Counted from the first letter of the stretch, positions 349 through 10,462 are shown. The stretch: DNA of 24,000 nt from Pseudohongiella sp. (GCF_040877505.1 NZ_JBBDNQ010000046.1:6432-30431); one strand, 5' to 3'. Numbers and translations are program-made. Notes: generated from the sequence alone by a model not told the origin.

Positions 349-579
349 GGTGGGCGCTCCGAATTCTTCTTGAGGGTCAGCTCTATACTGCCAGTATTAT
401 TGTAAAGGTCTACGCTGATATTGGGTAACTCTGACGCATAAAGAGGTAGAACCATTGTGTGCTTCAAAATCGAAATATTAGCCGATTCATCTTCATATGT
501 TTGGTAGCCCATTCGCTATTTCCGAGCACTAACAATGAAACAAAAATCGTACCTTCCGACGTCAAACTCTGAGTATAGT

Positions 580-1080
580 CTAGAAGGCGGTATACCTCCT
601 CATTTCATCAACAAGAACCTCTTTAACGTTTGCTATGGCTTCTCCTAGTTTCTCGCTATACTCTTCCGATTCCTGATTGTATTTTTCCACAGATAAGTAG
701 CTAAACGAGGAAATTGTATCGCTATTGAAGTTCATCATCTCGGTTTCAGCAGATGATAATTCTTCTACTAAGTCGTCGAACTCCGGAAAATATAGCTCGA
801 TAAGTGCAACTGCCTTATTCGACTCTTCAGATCCTAGAGAGCCGTGTTGAGACTTCCTCAACTTAAGTAAATCATTATCACGCACACCTTTGAAGAAATT
901 TACAGACTCTTCCAGATAATAAGACTCCATGCTCAAGAGATGCTCATAGCATTTTTGGATAATCTCTCTGTAGTGTTTGTTGTGCTCTCTCTTGTTCGAC
1001 TTATTTTGAACGATATATACGCCGAGCAAAGTTAACATGCCACCCAGCATTGTTTGGAAAACGGGAAGAATGCTTTCCAT
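580..1080 (-). CDS. hypothetical membrane-anchored helical protein (N-terminal TM helix)
   Basis: 166-aa ORF. The N-terminus ILPVFQTMLGGMLTLLGVYIV is a TM segment, followed by a charged helical region. No family recognised. Confidence 0.55.
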   Translation of the reverse strand: MESILPVFQTMLGGMLTLLGVYIVQNKSNKREHNKHYREIIQKCYEHLLSMESYYLEESVNFFKGVRDNDLLKLRKSQHGSLGSEESNKAVALIELYFPEFDDLVEELSSAETEMMNFNSDTISSFSYLSVEKYNQESEEYSEKLGEAIANVKEVLVDEMRRYTAF

Positions 1081-1175
1081 AAAAAGGTCACCCTATTAAT
1101 TCTCTGATTCTTGTGAAAGTGATCTAAGTTTAATTGGAGTAAAGTAAAATAACATACTCGTTCTAAAGTGTTCTT

Positions 1176-2528
1176 CTAGTTCTCGTCGCTCTCTTCATTC
1201 TTTGAAGCATCCAAGTTGTCGAATAGCCTTTGGATTTCAGAAGGTGATCCAACATTTTCATACTTTCTTATGATATCACTATAGGTGCTCATATTATTCT
1301 CATCGAAGATAGTATTGTATTTATCGAGCCAATATTTGTAGGCTTCTACGCTCGCTTTGTTGGAGAGATTCTTATATTCGTCAAAATGTGTCGGTAGATG
1401 ATTTTTCATGTATTCTAGATTCCGAAACTTTTCTAAATCATCAGGAAACCTATTTTGAGACATAATCTCGCTAAGCTTCCCGAAACTAGATTCGTGCTTC
1501 TTCAAATATTCATTCACTATAAAATTCTGTGAATCTCTCAGTTGATTCAGATTATCAGCTCGATATTTATGTCTCGGCTTCGAATGGGAGGCTCTCGCAT
1601 CAATGATCGAATTCTCATCAACCTCTACCGACAGATAGGACTCACTATCTTTCATGAACATCGATGTGCTGTACATATGAAATGCGCTAATATCTGATTC
1701 GCCAAATATTTCTGCCTGAATCTCCGCTAGAGGTCCTATAACTTTGTTGCCGTTAGAGTGTATTTTATACCACCAATCATCCTTGGCATCATCGGTTACA
1801 AAGATGACGCTGGCTATATCTTTTTCTTTTGACTTCTGTATTATTTGTTTCCAGATGATTAGATCACCAAACTGCCGCTCGTAATTCAGTCCATCATAGA
1901 AAAAATGGGTATCCTCCTCTTTCTTAGCTTTTGACGCATCTTTAAAGCCCGGCGGAATTCTATTCCTAAACCGCTCCGCACCTTCTTTATAAAGGTTATC
2001 TAGCCATTCTTGACTTTTCGGTTTTTCACCAACTTTTCCTTCGAATAAGCTGTTTAAATCGTCTCTAATTGAGTCATGAGAACGAACGCAGGGTTGCTCG
2101 CTATTCCAATGTGCCACCGATTTTCGGTAGCTCGCTATACTTCTACTAATCTCCTTCTCAAGCCTTTCAGTATTCTCCGCTAACTTAGGAAAGCGGCGCT
2201 TCAATGCCAGCTGTTCGAAGTCAGATTTGAATACATTCTGTACCTTATCAAGGTTTCTATCTATTTCACTAAAAATACTTTTTTCATTCTTGATAACCTC
2301 TAGTCTTCGCTTCTGGTACTCGAGACCCGCGTGGTATGGGATCCAAATTTGCCCTTCTATAGATTTCAGTATTTTAAAGAAATCATTTCTAGTTTGGAGT
2401 GCATAACCATACAGATTAAGAAGCACGTTGGCATCGAACACAAAAAGTGTTTTGTCATCCTTCCAAAGATTTCCAAGCTCTTGTTGAGATGCGCTATAGA
2501 ACCCCCTAAATATATTTTTCATATTCAC
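1176..2528 (-). CDS. PIN-like nuclease-domain protein (PIN_8/DUF4935-type N-terminal domain) with a helical C-terminal extension
   Basis: 450-aa ORF. It carries FVFDANVLLNLYGY (first acidic PIN motif), GLEYQKRR, IPPGFKDA, FGDLIIWKQII and VIFVTDDAKDDWWYK. This order of motifs is what I remember for PIN-like domain-containing proteins. GGGGG lies 5 nt upstream of the ATG. Confidence 0.7.
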   Translation of the reverse strand: MNMKNIFRGFYSASQQELGNLWKDDKTLFVFDANVLLNLYGYALQTRNDFFKILKSIEGQIWIPYHAGLEYQKRRLEVIKNEKSIFSEIDRNLDKVQNVFKSDFEQLALKRRFPKLAENTERLEKEISRSIASYRKSVAHWNSEQPCVRSHDSIRDDLNSLFEGKVGEKPKSQEWLDNLYKEGAERFRNRIPPGFKDASKAKKEEDTHFFYDGLNYERQFGDLIIWKQIIQKSKEKDIASVIFVTDDAKDDWWYKIHSNGNKVIGPLAEIQAEIFGESDISAFHMYSTSMFMKDSESYLSVEVDENSIIDARASHSKPRHKYRADNLNQLRDSQNFIVNEYLKKHESSFGKLSEIMSQNRFPDDLEKFRNLEYMKNHLPTHFDEYKNLSNKASVEAYKYWLDKYNTIFDENNMSTYSDIIRKYENVGSPSEIQRLFDNLDASKNEESDEN

Positions 2529-2849
2529 CCCCTATATCCAATGATTTTTGATGATACTTCGAAAGCATTAAGCCCTTGTCTGCACACGCAGAGTAGGGCT
2601 GCTGGTAGGCGGCGAACTCATCTGGAAAGACGATTCCTATCTCCTCCCCCAACTTAGTCAGCTGTACCTCAGTCTATTCTGCCTGGAACAACCACTACAA
2701 TTAGTCTGGAGAAATTCGAAAGCGGACGAGTCTAAATACCCGGGCCTAAAAATTCATTGTTTCGGACAAGTACAATAGGCGTAAGCTAATTCTAGAAAAT
2801 ATCGTTTTGCAATGGAGGTAAATCAAATCATACCGTTCTCTTAACTTAT

Positions 2850-3059
2850 CTAGTGCCCTATCCAACAGGCTCGTGGTGTAACTGAAGTTCGATTATTATG
2901 GCAGCCAATAGTTTTATCTACCGAGACTTCGCTATTGGTGATAATCGTAGCAAAAAATTCCCATATACTGCTTTCCGTGATCTTGTCGTAGATAGCGTTG
3001 TTCGCTAGAACCTTTTCCGTGTTATACCATAGCCCAATGATACAATAATACCTGTTCAT
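2850..3059 (-). CDS. small hypothetical protein (weak call)
   Basis: 69-aa ORF co-oriented with the island genes. No recognisable domain and no convincing RBS. Confidence 0.3.
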   Translation of the reverse strand: MNRYYCIIGLWYNTEKVLANNAIYDKITESSIWEFFATIITNSEVSVDKTIGCHNNRTSVTPRACWIGH

Positions 3060-3115
3060 TTAGTCTAGCTCTACATACTAATTATACTCAACATCCCCCG
3101 AGGTAGGTGACACGT

Positions 3116-3574
3116 TTATACGTCCGATTTGGTCCTTTTGTTAGAGGCGTTCTCTTCATCACCTAATATATCGCTAATAAAATCATCCACACCAGCTGCC
3201 TTGTATGATATGGCTTTGTACAAATCAAAAATGCCTGTGATTCGTGGAAAACTCCAAATTGAATTCCCTTTTCTATCGACAAACTCAAGTTCAATAGCTA
3301 TTGAATAAGTGGGCTGATAAGCGTACGTATTAAACAAGTGATTATCCTCACTATTATCATATTCCCTTTTATATATTCTTAGGATTCTCCCACCGTATTT
3401 TGTCTCAAATACAGCGCCAATAATCTTGGTAAACCCAAATTCGGAACCTTCGTTCGCCTCGACTACTTCCCAGCGCAATGTGGACTCCTGAGTTAGTTCA
3501 ATTAATTTGGCTACAAGTGCTACTAACTTTTCGTCTTGCTTAGCCATTTCCTTGACTCCATTTGTCATCTTCAC
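3116..3574 (-). CDS. hypothetical soluble protein, translationally coupled to the upstream membrane protein
   Basis: 152-aa ORF. An alternative start at 3547 (MAKQDEK...) gives an ATGGCTAA start/stop overlap with ORF 3540..3986. No family recognised. Confidence 0.55.
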   Translation of the reverse strand: MKMTNGVKEMAKQDEKLVALVAKLIELTQESTLRWEVVEANEGSEFGFTKIIGAVFETKYGGRILRIYKREYDNSEDNHLFNTYAYQPTYSIAIELEFVDRKGNSIWSFPRITGIFDLYKAISYKAAGVDDFISDILGDEENASNKRTKSDV

Positions 3575-3986
3575 GAATGTTTGAAATTTCTTGGATCACC
3601 ATATTCATTTCAAGATAAACCGCTCTGATCGAGTTCTTATCTATACTCTGATTCTCTCGAATTTCCTCAATGATCAAACGGAGTTTCTTTAGGGATAAAC
3701 GCATTGTTCCAGAGGACTTATTCTCAAGACTCCTAATATTTACTTGCGCAATCGCCAGTTCTTCGATAATTGCATGACTAGAGTCCGGGAGGTTAGTCAA
3801 TTCACTAGAAATCGTTGATGCGTGATTCTGTATTTTCTTTAAAAGACTCGGTAGTCTCGCTCTAAAAAGAAACTCTTGCTTTATTTTTCTCACTCCCAGA
3901 AAAACATAGATAGTGAAACCAAGCCCAGTAATCGAAGCAAGGCCACCGATTCGGTCAACGTTCAGCCATGAAAAAAGCGATTCCAT
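3540..3986 (-). CDS. hypothetical membrane-anchored helical protein
   Basis: 148-aa ORF. The N-terminal TM segment is GGLASITGLGFTIYVFLGV, followed by a helical region. AAGGAAA lies upstream of the ATG. The architecture parallels ORF 580..1080. Confidence 0.55.
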   Translation of the reverse strand: MESLFSWLNVDRIGGLASITGLGFTIYVFLGVRKIKQEFLFRARLPSLLKKIQNHASTISSELTNLPDSSHAIIEELAIAQVNIRSLENKSSGTMRLSLKKLRLIIEEIRENQSIDKNSIRAVYLEMNMVIQEISNIREDDKWSQGNG

Positions 3987-4091
3987 GTACAGTATTTCCT
4001 TAGTTTCTATTGCTGCTAAAACGCGCAGCTAAGTGGTTGAGGCGAGTCCGTAGCAGAAACGCTGTCGCCGTGATTGGGCTTACTAAAGCTT

Positions 4092-4457
4092 CTACAATAT
4101 GTCATCGTATTTGCGTCCATCAATCTCGCTGAATTCGAATGAACAAGGAAGTGCATTCATTCCGGCTTTTGCCATGGCTGTTGCATGAAATATCCAATCA
4201 ACAAGTTCAATGGGAAGTTTGCAAAGTCCAAATTCGGATTCGAACTTAACTAGCACCTTTGGGAGGGTATACTTCCCTCCTGGAACTTGTTACGCAAGTA
4301 CTTAGATTTCTTAGCATTCTTCTTTAGATGCCATATAGAAGCCGACTTTTATAACTTCGAATACGCCCCCCTTCTCTTTGTCCGACTTCATTAGGGGAAA
4401 TTGCGACTCGGGCAACTTATTCCATTCTTCAGCAGAAATAACATGGCCAATTCCCAT
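4092..4457 (-). pseudogene. disrupted ORF (or two micro-ORFs) interrupted by three in-frame TAA codons
   Basis: ATG at 4457 with GAGGA upstream. The frame stays open on both sides of TAA codons at 4311..4313, 4302..4304 and 4290..4292. The reading is MGIGHVISAEEWNKLPESQFPL...SKEEC*EI*VLA*QVPGGKYTLPKVLVKFESEFGLCKLPIELVDW...YDDIL*. Confidence 0.35.
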
Positions 4458-4534
4458 TGCAAATCCTCGATAGCAGTTGAGGTTTGATGCCGCTGTTCAG
4501 CGGCGAAGTTGTCGTGCCACAGTTTTTGCGCTTT

Positions 4535-5326
4535 CTATGTGCTTTTTACTACCTTATGCCGCGCAATAGCTCGCTCGGTAAAGCCTTGTAGACCGTCGTA
4601 GTCGTCTAACCACAAATCGAGATTTCCATACGCATTCCTGAAATCATCCCATCGAGGATACTCGTTGACAAATAGCTCCATCCCTCGTGCAAACTCAAAA
4701 AGATTGTTTACAAGAGCCTGAAGCTCCGCAAGCCTGAAAAGGTAGGTAAGTATATTCTGAGGGGCGACGAGCATTTGAGCACCTACGGTAAAGGAATCTG
4801 GAATTCCGGATATCCGTGAATTATGAACCTGAAGCCTCATTAAAATGTAAGCTAAATAGCTACCCACTTCTGGATCTGCTTTTTCAATACAACGACTAAA
4901 AATGGTTTTGTACTCCTTCGGTGGTACGGGGAGCGCTGCCGCAAGTTCTCTTCTCCTGTTATTCCTTGGTTCAGACGCTCGTTCGTAGGCTTCAGATAAT
5001 AAGATTGCACTTAATTTGAAATACTCAGTTAGTTCACTCAATGCCTCTGGTAAAAATACTTTCGCGGCAATGAATTCCCTTTCTCTCTGTCTTTCGGCAT
5101 TGTATCTGCCGATATTAAAGGCGATAAGACTTGAAACGAAAGCGAGCATACCTACGTTCAAGCCTTGCCAGTTGTGCCAAACACTATGCACATAATTCCA
5201 GTCTCCGTCTCCGCTAATCCAAGGAAACAGAAACATGCTTAACCCATAGAGTGTTACTACTGGTATACCTATTCTATTGAGAAGTTCTATTACTACTTCA
5301 GGCTCCAGTATTCCTATATGTCTCAA
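4535..5326 (-). CDS. hypothetical membrane protein (2-3 N-terminal TM helices plus a helical cytoplasmic domain)
   Basis: 263-aa ORF with a TTG start at 5326 and GAGGG 7 nt upstream. TM segments are IGIPVVTLYGLSMFLFPWI and LNVGMLAFVSSLIAFNI. No family recognised. Confidence 0.6.
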   Translation of the reverse strand: MRHIGILEPEVVIELLNRIGIPVVTLYGLSMFLFPWISGDGDWNYVHSVWHNWQGLNVGMLAFVSSLIAFNIGRYNAERQREREFIAAKVFLPEALSELTEYFKLSAILLSEAYERASEPRNNRRRELAAALPVPPKEYKTIFSRCIEKADPEVGSYLAYILMRLQVHNSRISGIPDSFTVGAQMLVAPQNILTYLFRLAELQALVNNLFEFARGMELFVNEYPRWDDFRNAYGNLDLWLDDYDGLQGFTERAIARHKVVKST

Positions 5327-5383
5327 TATGTTTCCCTCAATCTACTGGTGGCGAACAATCTTGACCACTGGCGTTGTCACAGG

Positions 5384-5486
5384 ACACGACGCCTAAGTTC
5401 AGGGGCGTTTGAGACGATGACTATTTTTTGGCAGCAAACCTGGGCAATGGCTCAAACGTCCCTTGTAACGATTTGTTAGATGCCGC
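5384..5486 (-). repeat. attC-like imperfect bulged hairpin element downstream of the ATPase gene
   Basis: On the minus strand ATCTAAC (plus 5475..5481) lies 18 nt after the stop. Arms 5449..5469 and 5397..5415 pair as GTTACAAGGGACGTTTGAGCC / GTT-CAGGGG-CGTTTGAGAC, with two single-base bulges. A TTAGGC/GTCGTGT boundary follows at 5384..5397. Confidence 0.5.
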
Positions 5487-5499
5487 CTCACCCGTCGCC

Positions 5500-7017
5500 T
5501 CAAACTTGGAGGAAAAGTCGCATGGTCTCAATTGATTCTGTGAGTTCATCCGGGGTGAACAGTACGTTTTGGTCGTTCTCCGGATGATGAATTTGATGGC
5601 GAATGTACTCGGTAAGAATAATTTGCTGCGACACCGCAGAACCATCCTGCCGGAGACGAATGTACTGACGCTCCGGTTTGCCAAGTTTGTAGTCAGCCAA
5701 GCGTCCTTCTGCCTCAATGAACCCATATAGTTCGTTGTGATATTCATAGGACGCCTCTCCAAACGCAGAAAAATTTACTTCATTAAGGCTTGGATACGGT
5801 AGCTCATGTTCAAGAACGGGCGAAACTCGTTTCGGAGCCTGATCTGAAACCAGAATGATGTTCTCAAATTTCAGGCGCTTGACGATTTCGGGGCTGTGTG
5901 TTGTGAGCAATACCTGGGTATTGGGTGCTTCAGACAGGGCGATCAGCGCATCAGTCAAATCGCGCTGATGTTCTGGGTGTTGAGATGTTTCCGGTTCTTC
6001 GATGGCGTATACAATATCGGGCAAGTTAGCCTCATTTTGTCTCCTCTCTGCTTCTGCACGGAAAAAACTGATCAGCACGAGGCGCTTTACTCCACTTCCT
6101 CTCTTATTAATGGGGATATCATCATCACCGGTAATAGAGACGTTCTTGAAGACATCCGGCCACTTCAGGCTGGCGAAATCAGGAAGTTGAGGGTCGAGTG
6201 AATTGGCGATTGCTGGGTTCATTTCCCTAAGCTTTTGTAAGGTTCTCTGAGCCACCTGATCCAATCGTGCCTTCACCGTGTCCGTGACCTGCGCCAAATC
6301 TGCTTGAATTTGTGGATCACCGAGGATTTCCCTGACAGCGATTCGCATAGGATCCTGAACTTCATCGTCAGAATCGCTATTTTTTCGATCCGATTGGAAC
6401 AGCGTGTACAGCGGCATATACGCCTTGAGTTGTTCCCAGATGCTCCTGGCGTCAATCTTGGCAACTTCAATTTCGCAGTCGCCTAACTGTAAATTTGCCT
6501 GCCCACGCCAGATAGCTTTTCGTAGCTCAGCATTCTTTGTCTTATCCGGGCAGTCGAAACCGCCAGCTTCCAATATCTTCTTAAGGTCGGCGTTCTTCTT
6601 CAGAAGTAAGTCAGAACATTCTGGGTTTACGGGGTGATTGGCCCTAATAAATACCTTTTCCTTCCCCGCATTTGGGTATCTCTTGACGACATGCAGGGTT
6701 CGCGCCGACGTTAGCAGGTATTCCTCCTGCAGTGTCGTCTGGTTCGTGGCGTCAATGACGATATTTCCAGGAAGATCAGTGAATTCGATTTCGATTTCAA
6801 TGCAGTCCTGCCCTTGAGCAAGGCAATCTTTGTTTATATCGTCCTTGTCTATCTTTACGCAGCCTTTACCTTCATTGAAAAAGACGTCCAACGCTTCAAG
6901 AAGTGTTGATTTCCCAATGTCGTTACGACCGACAAGGACGAGCAGGTCATCAAGCTGTACCGTCACCGGGCTTGAATAGCTTCGAAACCGATTCACGGTT
7001 ACGGCTTTTATTTTCAT
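5500..7017 (-). CDS. AAA/ABC-type ATPase (AAA_15/AAA_21, OLD/AriA/GajA-like N-terminal ATPase) with a short C-terminal domain and no recognisable Toprim
   Basis: 505-aa ORF with Walker A GRNDIGKST and Walker B/D-loop IVYAIEEPETSQHP. The H-loop is LLTTHSPEIV and a signature-like segment is RGSGVKRL. The N-terminus MKIKAVTVNRFRSY... is typical of OLD-family/AAA_15 ATPases. Confidence 0.85.
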   Translation of the reverse strand: MKIKAVTVNRFRSYSSPVTVQLDDLLVLVGRNDIGKSTLLEALDVFFNEGKGCVKIDKDDINKDCLAQGQDCIEIEIEFTDLPGNIVIDATNQTTLQEEYLLTSARTLHVVKRYPNAGKEKVFIRANHPVNPECSDLLLKKNADLKKILEAGGFDCPDKTKNAELRKAIWRGQANLQLGDCEIEVAKIDARSIWEQLKAYMPLYTLFQSDRKNSDSDDEVQDPMRIAVREILGDPQIQADLAQVTDTVKARLDQVAQRTLQKLREMNPAIANSLDPQLPDFASLKWPDVFKNVSITGDDDIPINKRGSGVKRLVLISFFRAEAERRQNEANLPDIVYAIEEPETSQHPEHQRDLTDALIALSEAPNTQVLLTTHSPEIVKRLKFENIILVSDQAPKRVSPVLEHELPYPSLNEVNFSAFGEASYEYHNELYGFIEAEGRLADYKLGKPERQYIRLRQDGSAVSQQIILTEYIRHQIHHPENDQNVLFTPDELTESIETMRLFLQV

Positions 7018-7046
7018 CTTGTTATCACCCCATGTAGCAAAGCGGC

Positions 7047-7151
7047 AACTAATGCCCGTTTAAGCCGTAGCATTTTTGTGTTATTGTTTCAGCATAGCAA
7101 GTAACACAAAAACGCGTATGTTTTAGCGTCGTCTGGAAGCGCTTGTTATGC
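7047..7151 (-). repeat. attC-like spacer with a perfect 11-bp stem
   Basis: On the minus strand GCATAAC (plus 7145..7151) lies 8 nt after the stop of ORF 7160..7816. The perfect stem is 7073..7083 TTTTTGTGTTA / 7102..7112 TAACACAAAAA with an 18-nt loop. The element ends with GGCTTAAACGGGC-ATTAGTT (plus 7047..7053). Confidence 0.4.
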
Positions 7152-7159
7152 ATCTGCTA

Positions 7160-7816
7160 TCAGTCTAACCCTAGGAGTTTTCTAGCACCATCTGCAAGAA
7201 CCTTGCGCCCTTCTTTGGATTTTCCAATAGATACAACGAGTTTTACGATCTTGTTGGGTGCCGTTCTAAGCCACGTTTCTTTTGGATAATACTCTATGTC
7301 TTCCGACACCCTCTCTATACCATCCTTGAACTCTCTAAACTGAGTAGACGTTATAATCTGGTCTTCCTCAAGTTTACGTACCTTTTCTTCGAGACGAGAA
7401 AATTTCTCTCTCAGAGCATTGATCTCCTCTACAGTAAATTCTTCGTCTTTCGTCTGTTCGCCTAGCTGCTCCGATATTAGCTCTCTGAGCTCATTGACCT
7501 CACGATTTAGATCTTTCTCTGCTTTTAGTTCACTTCGGACCTCGCTAGTCCAACGAGGAATAGTTCGGAACACCTCGTCTAGTGAATCCACGAGCATTGT
7601 CTTGTTAGCAGTTATTTCGCCAGGCGACATTTCTATTCGGTAAATGTGCAAGGCCCGGTTCGCTGTGAAGTAATAAGTCTGATTGTGAAGGAACGTTATT
7701 CGTATCAAATCATCAATATCATCATCTCCGAAGTAACGTATAAAGTCATCGCTTGAAAAACATGTGGAATCTAGGACCGAATCTATCTCTTTTTGTATCG
7801 TCAATCGAAGTTTCAT
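7160..7816 (-). CDS. hypothetical coiled-coil protein
   Basis: 218-aa ORF. The central region EVRSELKAEKDLNREVNELRELISEQL...LREKFSRLEEKVRKLEED has heptad-like charged repeats. No family recognised. Confidence 0.6.
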   Translation of the reverse strand: MKLRLTIQKEIDSVLDSTCFSSDDFIRYFGDDDIDDLIRITFLHNQTYYFTANRALHIYRIEMSPGEITANKTMLVDSLDEVFRTIPRWTSEVRSELKAEKDLNREVNELRELISEQLGEQTKDEEFTVEEINALREKFSRLEEKVRKLEEDQIITSTQFREFKDGIERVSEDIEYYPKETWLRTAPNKIVKLVVSIGKSKEGRKVLADGARKLLGLD

Positions 7817-7834
7817 GAGGATTCCGCTTTATTT

Positions 7835-7897
7835 GCATAACGCTCTTCGTAATGGGCGAGGCGACAGCCCTGTCCAAGATTGATTTGATTGTTAGCT
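7835..7897 (-). repeat. attC-like 63-nt spacer
   Basis: The minus strand begins with AGCTAAC (plus 7891..7897), 14 nt after the stop of ORF 7912..8562. It ends with GTTATGC (plus 7835..7841), 18 nt before the ATG at 7816. Internal pairing is weak by eye. Confidence 0.35.
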
Positions 7898-7911
7898 GCC
7901 ATGACTTGAAT

Positions 7912-8562
7912 CTACAACACTGAGTCAATTAATGGCGCAACTTTTTCATATGCTGAGCTGACACCTGATGCCACTGCTATTTTTTCCAGTCCGCCCCATA
8001 GTGCGGCGATTATAGCTTTGTTTGGCTTAGTTTTAGCTAGCTGATCTTTGATACTTTCTACGTCAACTGAGTAGTCTAGTTTTTCTTGTTCGTTGAGATC
8101 GCTAGACGTAGCAATAGATTTTTTCAATTCATCTAAATGCGTTCGTAAATCTGCAAAATCAGCATTGACTACATTTCCATCGCCAAGTGTAATTATGTTG
8201 CTGCCTGTAGCTGTGATGTTGATACCAGCGTATCTGTCTTTAGGTTCAAATTGAGAGCCGCCTTCAATCTTGTCGATACCTTTTGCAGTGATTTCATAGA
8301 ACGTTGTTGTCTGTGGGATTGTTCCGCCTTTGACGTTTATGGTTTTTTCTATGTCAATGGTCTTTACCCAGTTGTTGTCAATTAGATAAGTTAGGTTTGA
8401 CATTACTTGAGGCTGTGCCAAACCATGGAGGGCTTTTAATTCACGTTTTGCATCGCTAATTTTTAAAGCAGAACCTTTCTTACCCATTTTGCTTGTCGCA
8501 TTAGCATTCCTATCGTAGAAATATTGGAGAATAGATTTTCTTATTTCATCATTTGGGTTCAT
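7912..8562 (-). CDS. hypothetical protein with a putative N-terminal winged-helix domain
   Basis: 216-aa ORF. The N-terminus IRKSILQYFYDRN...ISDAKRELKALHGLAQPQVMSNLTYLIDNNWV looks like a wHTH. A GSNIITLGDGNVVN motif is followed by a helical C-terminus. The start overlaps the upstream stop (ATGA at 8559..8562). Confidence 0.6.
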   Translation of the reverse strand: MNPNDEIRKSILQYFYDRNANATSKMGKKGSALKISDAKRELKALHGLAQPQVMSNLTYLIDNNWVKTIDIEKTINVKGGTIPQTTTFYEITAKGIDKIEGGSQFEPKDRYAGINITATGSNIITLGDGNVVNADFADLRTHLDELKKSIATSSDLNEQEKLDYSVDVESIKDQLAKTKPNKAIIAALWGGLEKIAVASGVSSAYEKVAPLIDSVL

Positions 8563-8855
8563 TTCAGCAGCTCATCAAATACATCCGGATATCCATAATT
8601 CACTGATCCTCTATTGCCCGGATTGCCAGGATTCCCGGCATTGCCAGGATTACCCGGGTTACCTATATTTCCGTAATTTCCCATATGCTTGTTTAGAACC
8701 ATATCTTTGTGTAATTCGCCGACATAACTTCCCGATAGTTTATGCACGTGTGTACCATTGATCTGGCCAACTGCTTTTCCATGCATATCGTGAATATATT
8801 TACCTCGAATATATCCAACCGCAGTCCCTCGAGAGCTGTAAATGTAATCAGTCAT
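8559..8855 (-). CDS. small repeat protein: three 16-residue G-x-x-V-G beta-hairpin-like repeats plus a (G-N-X)8 tract
   Basis: 98-aa ORF with GAGGA upstream of the ATG. The repeats are RGTAVGYIRGKYIHDM / HGKAVGQINGTHVHKL / SGSYVGELHKDMVLNK. They are followed by GNYGNIGNPGNPGNAGNPGNPGNRG. It is reminiscent of small '4-fold beta-flower'-type proteins (from memory, unverified). Confidence 0.6.
   Translation of the reverse strand: MTDYIYSSRGTAVGYIRGKYIHDMHGKAVGQINGTHVHKLSGSYVGELHKDMVLNKHMGNYGNIGNPGNPGNAGNPGNPGNRGSVNYGYPDVFDELLK
8607..8681 (-). repeat. coding tandem repeat, 25 codons of G-N-X triplets
   Basis: Minus-strand GGA AAT TAC GGA AAT ATA GGT AAC CCG GGT AAT CCT GGC AAT GCC GGG AAT CCT GGC AAT CCG GGC AAT AGA GGA, inside ORF 8559..8855. 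Confidence 0.8.
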
Positions 8856-8947
8856 AGAATCCTCGTGCAGCTAACGCCCTTGTTCTGGCGCGAAAACATG
8901 TTGGTACCGCTTTGTACGTCCCTAGTGAGCGTTCCTACTAGGACAGC

Positions 8948-9253
8948 TTATGGTTTCGGCATACATTTGAAGTGCAACTCCACTCTGGGAAAATTCCCCA
9001 GAATATACGGGGGTTCGGATTCTTCCGTTTCTATAGCTTCGAACACTTTGTCATTCGATTCACAGTACCGAGCGGCCTCACCGATAGCATCAGCTTTCAA
9101 CGTGCCCATACCCGAGAATCCAGAAGCTGCCTGTCGTGAGACCATATACGCATCATTACCAAGTGGCACAATGCCCGAATTCGATGCACAGGAGGTTACT
9201 AGTCCTGCCACAACAGCCAAGCCCATAATTTTCGACATCAACACGTTCTCCAT
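8948..9253 (-). CDS. putative lipoprotein
   Basis: 101-aa ORF. The signal peptide and lipobox are MSKIMGLAVVAGLVTS-C, with a possible true start at 9238. GTTAGCA lies 6 nt upstream of the ATG at 9253. Confidence 0.65.
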   Translation of the reverse strand: MENVLMSKIMGLAVVAGLVTSCASNSGIVPLGNDAYMVSRQAASGFSGMGTLKADAIGEAARYCESNDKVFEAIETEESEPPYILGNFPRVELHFKCMPKP

Positions 9254-9434
9254 TCGTGGTGCTAACAGCTGGAGTTCCTCTCGCCAGAACGCTAAACAAA
9301 TCGCCGATACACAGGCTCATCCCTATAGGAACATCGCCCAGTGTCTTAACATCAATCAAGGGAGAGGCCAAAGCCCAATAAAACCAGAATACTGAACCAC
9401 TTACAACTATCCAACAGGCTAATATAGGGTACAT
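9156..9434 (-). CDS. small hydrophobic ORF at the island edge whose 3' part reads out of frame through the lipoprotein gene (possibly truncated or chimeric)
   Basis: ATG at 9434, 26 nt after the cydB stop. MYPILACWIVVSGSVFWFYWALASPLIDV... is TM-like. After about 9266 the frame overlaps ORF 8948..9253 by 98 nt, with low-complexity, Cys-rich sequence. Confidence 0.3.
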   Translation of the reverse strand: MYPILACWIVVSGSVFWFYWALASPLIDVKTLGDVPIGMSLCIGDLFSVLARGTPAVSTTNGERVDVENYGLGCCGRTSNLLCIEFGHCATW

Positions 9435-9460
9435 TTCACACCACCCGCACAACCCACCCC

Positions 9461-10462
9461 TCAGTCATACTTCAACGCAGTAGCCTTGCCCCGGAATATC
9501 CGGTACACAAAAAACGTGTAGATCAGGATGGTGGGCAGCACCACGGCGGTGCCCCAGAAGGTGAACAGCAGCGAGGCGGTGCTGGCGGCGGATTCCCAGA
9601 TGTCCATCTGGCCGATGATGATGTCGGGCAGGATGCTGTAGGCCAGGCCCAGGGCGGCGAGCAGGCACAGGGCGATGAGGCCGGCGAACAGCAGCCATTC
9701 GGCTTTGCTGCGCAGCACGCGGGTGTCGAACACCAGCCAGATCAGCGCGCCGTAGATCAGGCTGCTGAGGATGGGCACCGGCAGCAGCCACAGGCTGTCG
9801 GGGAAGGAGAACCATTTGTCGGCGATGGTGCTGCTGACCAGCGGGGTGGCGATGGACACCAGCAGCAGGGCCAGGCCCATGGGCAGGATGGAGGTTTTGG
9901 CCCAGCGCAGGGCTTTGTCGAACAGGGCGTGTTCGGTCTTGATCAGCAGCCAGGCGGCGCCCAGCAATATGTACAGGGCGGGCAGGGTGATGGCGATCAG
10001 GCCGGAGAACAGGGTGTTGATCCAGCCGGTGTCCAGGCCGGTGATGTAGGTGCCCAGCATCCAGCCCTGGGCCAGTGATGAGATCAACGAGCCGGCAAAA
10101 AAAAGATTGTTCCACATCTGTTTGCGGTGGGACACGGCCTTGGCGCGGAAGTCGAAGGCAATGCCGCGCAGTATCAGCCCCATCAGCATGACGGTGACCG
10201 GGATATACAGCGTACTGAGGATGATGCCGTGTGCCTGCGGGAAGGCGATCAGCAAAATGCCGATACCCAGCACGATCCAGGTTTCGTTGGCATCCCAGAA
10301 CGGGCCGATGGCGGCGACCATGACGTCTTTTTCGTCCTCATCAGCCAGCGGCAGCAACATGCCAATGCCCAGGTCGTAGCCGTCCAGCACCACATAAATT
10401 AGCAGTGCCAGGCCCATGGCGCCGGCAAAAAACAATGGTAACCAGATTTCCAGTGCCATCAC
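9461..10462 (-). CDS. cydB: cytochrome bd-type ubiquinol oxidase subunit II
   Basis: 333-aa polytopic membrane protein. MALEIWLPLFFAGAMGLALLIYVVLDGYDLGIGML is the typical CydB N-terminus. The track start is GTG at 10462. An ATG at 10459 overlaps the cydA stop (TGATG). Confidence 0.9.
   Translation of the reverse strand: MMALEIWLPLFFAGAMGLALLIYVVLDGYDLGIGMLLPLADEDEKDVMVAAIGPFWDANETWIVLGIGILLIAFPQAHGIILSTLYIPVTVMLMGLILRGIAFDFRAKAVSHRKQMWNNLFFAGSLISSLAQGWMLGTYITGLDTGWINTLFSGLIAITLPALYILLGAAWLLIKTEHALFDKALRWAKTSILPMGLALLLVSIATPLVSSTIADKWFSFPDSLWLLPVPILSSLIYGALIWLVFDTRVLRSKAEWLLFAGLIALCLLAALGLAYSILPDIIIGQMDIWESAASTASLLFTFWGTAVVLPTILIYTFFVYRIFRGKATALKYD

Follow-up and report, generated by a model that had tools for sequence, protein, structure and literature searches.

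This study examined a 24,000-nucleotide (nt) stretch of Pseudohongiella sp. DNA (GCF_040877505.1, NZ_JBBDNQ010000046.1:6432-30431), hereafter the window, and within it a minus-strand gene for a 505-amino acid (aa) ATP-binding cassette (ABC) ATPase. Judged by its DNA sequence, the gene is an autonomous single-gene integron cassette. Its product is predicted to join an ATPase of the OLD clade to a conserved C-terminal domain (CTD), which stands where single-gene OLD nucleases carry a Toprim domain. The reading we favor, with slightly better than even confidence, is that the cassette encodes a one-protein sensor-effector of the abortive infection type.

An earlier note, made without database searches, had described three adjacent open reading frames (ORFs), namely the ATPase gene, a gene for a coiled-coil protein upstream and a gene for a membrane protein downstream. 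The three ORFs, the set of ATPase motifs and the intergenic gaps of 142 nt (7018..7159) and 173 nt (5327..5499) were as claimed (Table 1). The note had offered two readings, a standalone cassette with a novel C-terminal domain or an ATPase acting with a membrane effector. The first was borne out: homology is confined to the gene plus its attC, the cassette ends co-vary, and the CTD has no match in curated libraries or among solved structures.

Comparison of the window with other genomes using blastn revealed homology (85–92% identity) to loci L002-L007 and L044 that starts at 7052–7056 and ends at 5389–5473. The shared DNA consists of one ORF plus its attC, with nothing beyond. In the matching loci the cassette unit opens with G/TTAGATGCC (the slash marks the boundary) ~36 nt before the ATG, and closes with GGCG/TTAG. 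The R'' box that opens the attC, GCATCTAAC, is intact in the window and is the exact reverse complement of GTTAGATGC in L002, L004, L005 and L007. Both R' boxes that flank the window cassette are degenerate, ATTAGTT upstream and GTCGTGT downstream; the latter is GTTAGnn in other genomes. The 8-mer upstream of the gene (GTTNNNNN) was the reverse complement of the post-stop NNNNNAAC in 23/77 testable loci, exactly so in 17. The corresponding means were 5.2 (1.2 exact) for permuted pairs and 3.0 when the downstream sequence was shuffled. Seven distinct co-varying 8-mer pairs were seen across lineages (Table 1). Complementarity between the two ends is the hallmark of an integron cassette able to circularise.

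The length and center of the attC downstream of the ATPase stop codon differ between arrays for the same gene (about 52, 72 and 98 nt), as was seen when L002-L004 were compared with the window, L005-L007 and L044. Between arrays, only the R'' end and the final bases of the attC are common, against 85–92% identity of the ORFs, which suggests that attC sites undergo remodelling or exchange around an ORF that is retained. Within 8 kb of the 80 ATPase loci there was a single IntI-like gene, L015:14792-15655, which aligns with IntI1 over 332 residues at 33% identity and is located downstream of, and convergent with, the ATPase gene.

The earlier note had called the gaps structured. Imperfect hairpins of the attC type are indeed present, but the folding energies are only modest. 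The + strand of the attC region (5386-5484), the complement of the coding strand, forms the more stable fold, at −15.8 kcal/mol (z −2.2) versus −10.5 kcal/mol for the − strand, and the element at 7052-7152 has z scores of −1.05 and −1.9 on its two strands. The identification of the attC sites therefore rests on the comparative evidence.

The Pfam family AAA_15 spans residues 1–379 of the ATPase and positions 1–374 of the 374-position model (E 2e-80). A database search returned 6573 relatives at E≤1e-5, the best 120 of which were 498–546 aa long and 72–93% identical; their database names are generic only. When the family profile was compared with solved structures, the class 1 OLD protein of Thermus scotoductus (6p74) scored best (3e-26), followed by PtuA and GajA (both 2e-21) and the retron PtuA-type ATPases (about 1e-16 to 1e-18). 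AriA (8ux9) scored only 1e-12 over profile positions 333–383. None of the solved structures aligned beyond profile position ~404. Foldseek with a low-confidence full-length model likewise placed OLD first and did no more than confirm the OLD, SMC and Rad50 head. AAA_13 was absent among the Pfam matches at E≤0.1. By these profile comparisons the ATPase is assigned to the OLD/PtuA/GajA clade. Its description as AriA-like in the earlier note holds in the generic sense that both are AAA_15-type ATPases, but AriA itself was rejected as its identity since OLD, PtuA and GajA all score better. The PADLOC AriA model that matches the protein (373 positions, residues 1–379) mirrors the AAA_15 match in length and span.

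No Toprim family in Pfam matches the 505-aa protein and there is no DxD in aa 376–505, in agreement with the earlier note. Relatives in 360 plasmid records match residues 1 to ~391 only, at 38–43% identity. The two plasmid relatives examined are 608-aa single genes (e.g. WP_203024216.1), 38% identical to the window protein over aa 1–391 (E 5e-79), with which they have the family-specific insert motifs in common. The E. coli plasmid copy has an OLD-like_TOPRIM domain (PF20469) at 423–494, and the Pseudomonas plasmid copy has no Toprim match at E≤0.01. Because both plasmid relatives share the ATPase and its insert motifs and the E. coli one then continues into Toprim, the window ATPase belongs, by this comparison, to a sister lineage of the single-gene OLD nucleases in which Toprim has been exchanged for another domain at the same junction (about aa 392–405).

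The part of the protein after the H-loop is longer than the earlier note had stated, with 131 residues following His374 instead of about 115, and the conserved CTD occupies about aa 398–505. Residues 385–505 were searched against 1.84 billion representative proteins. The CTD is carried by 347 clusters at 50% identity, from many phyla, 115 of them at E≤1e-10. An ABC ATPase precedes it in 47/47 listed representatives of at least 400 aa, although some of these ATPases are just 22–26% identical. Across members with ATPases as low as 22% identical, the protein as a whole is invariant at G309, E341, H347, H374, L430, R473, H477, H478, P479, E480, N481 and N484 and nearly invariant at E413, H427, E429, Y431, S495 and I496. 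From this pattern the CTD is judged to be the most constrained part of the protein, and its conserved residues are of a catalytic kind. In one 142-aa metagenomic fragment (P0148), CTD motifs 2 and 3 come immediately after an SNF2-helicase C-terminal motif (DRWWNPAVENQATDRA), which reflects either an uncommon, alternative fusion of the CTD or a chimeric assembly.

Three domain libraries were consulted for the CTD: Pfam (2025), NCBIfam (2026) and PADLOC (2023). Residues 385–505 had no Pfam match even at E 10, and the NCBIfam and PADLOC models stop at about residue 406, none covering the CTD. A Pfam scan of 48 diverged CTDs at E≤5 returned no consistent family, and a CTD profile found only chance matches among PDB sequences. 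No description of the CTD emerged from literature searches; an earlier, purely computational mention is possible, including overlap with the ABC-HEPN families APECO1_4465 and ERFG_01251.

An AlphaFold (AF2) model of the CTD, built from 48 diverse sequences, was confident, with a predicted local distance difference test score (pLDDT) of 92.1 and a predicted template modeling score of 0.82, and Foldseek recognized no known domain in it. The elements of the model are listed in Table 1 in CTD numbering, to which 384 is added for full-length numbering. As described for HEPN domains (PMC3710099), an Rx4-6H motif ends helix 3, the R is followed by a polar residue, helix 2 contributes an acidic residue, and an insert separates helices 2 and 3. 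The model fits this description element by element, with its R-x4-H, acidic helix 2 and variable insert. That the CTD is a HEPN RNase is accordingly the leading hypothesis suggested by the model, though not an established one. The earlier note had described the protein as lacking a nuclease domain. It does lack Toprim, but the CTD takes the position of the effector and could be a nuclease in its own right.

Other assignments of the CTD were considered and rejected. Conservation of the IEAEGRLAD stretch, which had been likened to the first Toprim motif, does not extend to diverged members, and the model makes it a helix, so the CTD is not a Toprim remnant. For an HNH or His-Me finger (HH..N..N) and for GIY-YIG (Y..R..H), the spacing and the order of elements do not fit, and Foldseek gave no significant match.

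A scan of one genome per species generated 387 stretches with relatives of the ATPase, and the best 80 were analyzed. They match over the full length at 54–94% identity and represent Pseudomonadota, Bacteroidota, Bacillota, Actinomycetota, Chloroflexota, Cyanobacteria, Campylobacterota and an Altarchaeum metagenome-assembled genome. Some lie in type I restriction-modification (R-M) operons. The order is hsdM-hsdS-ATPase-hsdR in L071 and L076. In L051 hsdM and hsdS precede the ATPase gene and hsdR follows at a greater distance, and in L025 the ATPase stop codon is overlapped by hsdR. Three loci (L071, L076 and L051) thus have hsdS immediately before the ATPase gene, and three (L071, L076 and L025) have hsdR immediately after it. 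In EcoprrI, prrC is likewise located between hsdS and hsdR. The neighbors at some loci include restriction enzymes, BrxL, RhuM and nucleotidyltransferases. Among 5,426 complete E. coli genomes, 10 carry a copy (WP_233618192.1), with a prophage integrase gene immediately before it. Diverged ATPase-CTD members thus occur in enterobacteria. One (L091:3498-4946, E. coli SCU-316) lies directly after a prophage or satellite integrase gene and before a major capsid gene, and the other (L090:3858-5321, Klebsiella pA2508-emrE) lies between two ISNCY transposase genes beside a TIR-domain gene.

OLD, PARIS, PrrC and RloC are ABC-ATPase-gated nucleases that cleave tRNA, and one preprint reports that integron cassettes hold streamlined single-gene defenses (10.1101/2024.07.02.601686). 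It is because of these precedents that we propose a one-protein abortive infection system. The ATPase would sense and gate, the CTD would cleave RNA, and the outcome would be defense against phage by a single protein. A defense role, an effector role for the CTD, RNase chemistry and a gating mechanism are each the most likely interpretation. In the window the cassette would now be fixed, promoterless, in an integrase-less array within a low-GC island.

Several observations weigh against this proposal. No sigma-70-like site was found in the 142-nt gap upstream of the ATPase gene and the core sites are degenerate, so the window cassette may be silent and immobile. R-M operons enclose the gene in a minority of loci, the window not among them, and the full protein was present in just 3 of 2.9 million viral contigs (IMG/VR). 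As to the HEPN assignment, a single stray Pfam match to HEPN_Swt1 (E 0.12) was obtained among the 48 CTD members. Foldseek of the CTD model returned neither HEPN nor any other fold (best E 0.37 in the PDB and 0.27 in BFVD, template modeling score <0.25), and the insert is a β-hairpin, which is unusual for HEPN. Finally, the full-length model (pLDDT 59.7) is a poor guide to the geometry of the ATPase relative to the CTD.

Two alternatives place the effector outside the ATPase protein. The three genes are adjacent and on the same strand, and ATPases of this type often need a partner, so the ATPase might act as sensor in a three-gene system, together with the 218-aa protein and with the 263-aa membrane protein as effector. 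We give this almost no credence. Within 8 kb of the ATPase gene, 0/80 loci contained a relative of either neighbor or of another island gene (tblastn, E≤1e-3), and when all neighboring ORFs were clustered, no family occurred in more than 8/81 loci (the 80 homologue loci plus L001, the window's own Logan contig). Relatives of both proteins occur elsewhere with no adjacent AAA_15 gene, and attC sites part the three genes at the points where homology to other genomes ends. The three-gene system, which the earlier note had put forward as an ATPase with a membrane effector, is refuted by these forward and reciprocal context analyses, and the reading that the note had favored, of separate cassettes, is upheld. 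Alternatively, the CTD could be a docking or adaptor domain, much as PtuA binds PtuB, with the effector elsewhere in the genome or in an adjacent R-M enzyme. PtuA and AriA consist of an ATPase alone and bind separate nucleases, PrrC is kept inactive by its R-M partner, and some ATPase-CTD members do lie inside hsd operons. We regard docking as rather improbable, however. No neighbor recurs across loci, and most copies are lone cassettes or stand alone between insertion sequence elements or beside a prophage integrase gene, which makes a fixed partner in trans unlikely. Moreover, the His, Glu, Asn and Arg residues that are invariant resemble a catalytic set more than an interface, and Foldseek gave no significant match to solved structures, PtuA entries included.

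The other alternatives concern the chemistry of the CTD and the role of the gene. The protein could be a single-gene defense in which the CTD is a new, non-HEPN catalytic fold, for example a metal-dependent nuclease with a His/Glu/Asn cluster. Foldseek finds no match despite a pLDDT of 92, the cluster H427/E429/H477/H478/E480/N481 could bind metal, and a β-hairpin precedes the His-bearing helix. Against this, four features fit HEPN, namely how the R-[HND]-x3-H residues are spaced, where they lie (at the end of helix 3), an acidic helix 2 and a variable insert. The HH pair also stands too close to the two Asn residues for a classical HNH motif. We consider a new fold unlikely. Marginally less probable again is the fuller claim that the CTD is neither HEPN, Toprim nor HNH and belongs to an undescribed, widespread single-protein anti-phage system with a new coupling of ATPase to cleavage. 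If true, that system would have spread as an integron cassette over more than 8 phyla and would be present in E. coli prophages and Klebsiella plasmids, and its CTD would link ABC-ATPase head engagement to nucleic acid cleavage in a new manner. A role outside defense, as a selfish stabilizing or addiction gene of cassette arrays or as a DNA repair ATPase, seems very unlikely. Integron arrays do carry addiction modules, and a gene that is widespread across phyla at 54–94% identity is what would be expected of a selfish mobile gene. But the closest characterized relatives are all anti-phage proteins, the contexts are R-M operons, the flank of a prophage integrase gene and restriction, BREX and TIR neighbors, and the 35-nt leader contains no antitoxin-like partner ORF.

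Set beside known systems, the protein would act much as a class 1 OLD or a PrrC does. Class 1 OLD proteins (P2 Old, 6p74 and the 608-aa plasmid proteins) have the same ABC ATPase clade and the same single-gene layout of sensor ATPase plus C-terminal effector. Like them, the window gene encodes an AAA_15/OLD ATPase and has no fixed partner; unlike them, it has no Toprim (Glu + DxD), carries in its place a 108-residue, mostly helical R-x4-H domain, and is ~100 residues shorter. PrrC and RloC resemble the window family in joining an ABC ATPase to a small C-terminal domain with Rx4-6H, and some family members share the hsdS-X-hsdR position of PrrC in type I R-M operons. They differ in that the window ATPase is of the AAA_15/OLD type, a different ABC clade from the Rad50/SbcC-like AAA_13, and in that the CTD has no sequence similarity to known HEPN families detectable with Pfam and no HEPN fold confirmed by Foldseek. 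PARIS AriA, Septu PtuA and Gabija GajA share the AAA_15-type ATPase, and the window protein is closer to OLD, PtuA and GajA than to AriA. Their partners AriB (DUF4435 Toprim), PtuB (HNH) and GajB (UvrD-like) were absent among the Pfam-annotated neighbors in the window and among recurrent families at the 81 loci. The ATPase cassette is compact, single-gene, attC-bounded and defense-like, as are the streamlined anti-phage integron cassettes in the searched text of the Darracq et al. and Kieffer et al. preprints, although at about 1.66 kb it is long for a cassette. That searched text names no ATPase cassette. As for integron structure in general, one ORF bounded by attC with a complementary R'' was found, and intI and attI were absent beside the array.

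Table 1. Features of the ATPase cassette, its product and the adjacent cassettes (positions are window coordinates unless CTD residues are given).
Feature	Position	Strand	Details
Single-gene integron cassette	5390..7052	−	35-nt leader, 505-aa ORF and attC; about 1.66 kb
attC of ATPase cassette	5384..5483	−	R'' GCATCTAAC (5483..5475); R' GTCGTGT (5390..5384)
ATPase ORF	5500..7017	−	505 aa; OLD-clade ABC ATPase plus C-terminal domain
Walker A GRNDIGKST	6904..6930	−	aa 30–38; K36 invariant in alignment A1
ABC signature region NKRGSGVKR	6082..6108	−	aa 304–312; G309 invariant even in 22%-identical members
Walker B/D-loop IVYAIEEPE	5989..6015	−	aa 335–343; E341 invariant
H-loop TTHS	5893..5904	−	aa 372–375; H374 invariant
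Conserved CTD, candidate effector in place of Toprim	5503..5826	−	aa 398–505, 108 residues
CTD motif 1 PSLNEVNF	5770..5793	−	E413 nearly invariant; helix 1
CTD motif 2 EYHNELYG	5722..5745	−	H427, E429, Y431 nearly invariant, L430 invariant; helix 2
CTD motif 3 YIRHQIHHPENDQN	5566..5607	−	R473-x4-H478 ends helix 3; then P479, E480, N481, N484, all invariant
CTD helix 1	CTD residues 27–35		AlphaFold model
CTD helix 2	CTD residues 40–52		holds H43, E45
CTD insert	CTD residues 56–83		short helix 56–60 and β-hairpin 65–83; longer and different in diverged subgroup
CTD helix 3	CTD residues 84–93		ends R89-[H/N/D]-x-x-[H/D]-H94
CTD loop	CTD residues 95–100		P-E-N-x-x-N
CTD helix 4	CTD residues 105–120		
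Co-varying 8-mer pair			GTTAGATG / CATCTAAC
Co-varying 8-mer pair			GTTATGTG / CACATAAC
Co-varying 8-mer pair			GTTAAATG / CATTTAAC
Co-varying 8-mer pair			GTTAGGTG / CACCTAAC
Co-varying 8-mer pair			GTTGTGCG / CGCACAAC
Co-varying 8-mer pair			GTTAGTGG / CCACTAAC
Co-varying 8-mer pair			GTTAGGCG / CGCCTAAC
Separate cassette of 218-aa protein	7053..7840	−	ORF 7160..7816; not part of ATPase unit
attC of 218-aa cassette	7047..7151	−	R'' GCATAAC (7151..7145); R' ATTAGTT (7053..7047), degenerate where G expected
Coiled-coil-like protein ORF	7160..7816	−	218 aa
Start of separate cassette of protein with two transmembrane segments	4535..5389	−	ORF 4535..5326; not part of ATPase unit
ORF of protein with two transmembrane segments	4535..5326	−	263 aa, TTG start

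The neighbors of the ATPase gene have no recognizable function, as the earlier note had stated. The 218-aa protein has only weak matches of the coiled-coil type and 18 relatives, one of which (P0393) has no AAA_15 neighbor; one family relative adjoins ribonucleotide reductase genes. Its cassette opens with GTTATGC (7841..7835), the exact reverse complement of the R'' box GCATAAC. The 263-aa protein has no domain matches and contains two hydrophobic segments, at about aa 11–37 and 55–73. Its 211 relatives occur in other contexts, including one in Spongiibacter and one in a Vibrio prophage, where it follows the O and P replication genes. One source labels a relative "phage abortive infection protein". 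The 263-aa cassette seems to have a core that is non-canonical yet self-complementary, opening with GTCGTG (5384..5390) and having CACGAC after the stop codon (4511..4518).

All three genes belong to a ~9-kb low-GC island (350..9460) with 42.7% GC against a background of 58.2%. The island is bounded by a cytochrome bd subunit II-like gene (ending at 9461) and a DsbA-like gene (starting at 348), every gene in it is on the minus strand, and attC-like sites part several of them. Elsewhere the window encodes ordinary functions, including a sigma factor, a major facilitator superfamily transporter, a MerR regulator, an ABC-2 transporter, a WYL regulator and an outer membrane efflux protein. Neither tblastn with IntI1 nor the Pfam scan identified an IntI-like ORF or integrase in the window, and an Rfam scan of the window gave no match. 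Because the window lacks an integrase and the array is bounded by the cydB-like and DsbA-like genes, the island looks like an integrase-less cassette array of the CALIN type (cluster of attC sites lacking integron-integrase), stocked with defense-like genes.

Other members of the island were also noted, all on the minus strand. A two-gene cassette occupies 7912..8855, its genes overlapping by ATGA. The product of the first gene is a "4-fold beta flower" protein of 98 aa (PF21784, E 1.6e-12) with a tail of GNPGN repeats, and that of the second is a 216-aa protein whose C-terminal half matches the PADLOC candidate family PDC-M14B (E 2e-7). The 450-aa protein encoded at 1176..2528 has an N-terminal PIN_8 domain (PF18476, E 2e-65), and its gene is possibly a further nuclease-type defense cassette. 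At 3116..3986 two overlapping ORFs encode proteins of 148 aa (with an N-terminal hydrophobic segment) and 152 aa, both of unknown function, and this is probably another two-gene cassette.

ABC-ATPase-gated nucleases, among them OLD, Gabija, PARIS, Septu and PrrC, are a major branch of bacterial immunity. The window family appears to keep the OLD-type sensor and to swap the effector for a compact, highly conserved domain that lies outside curated libraries and solved structures. Since E. coli copies exist (WP_233618192.1), the family is directly testable, and the diverged enterobacterial members from E. coli SCU-316 and Klebsiella pA2508-emrE are handy experimental entry points. If the CTD is an RNase, the family would extend the theme of the ATPase-gated tRNase to a minimal, one-gene form, which would fit the streamlined, compact integron defenses that have been reported.

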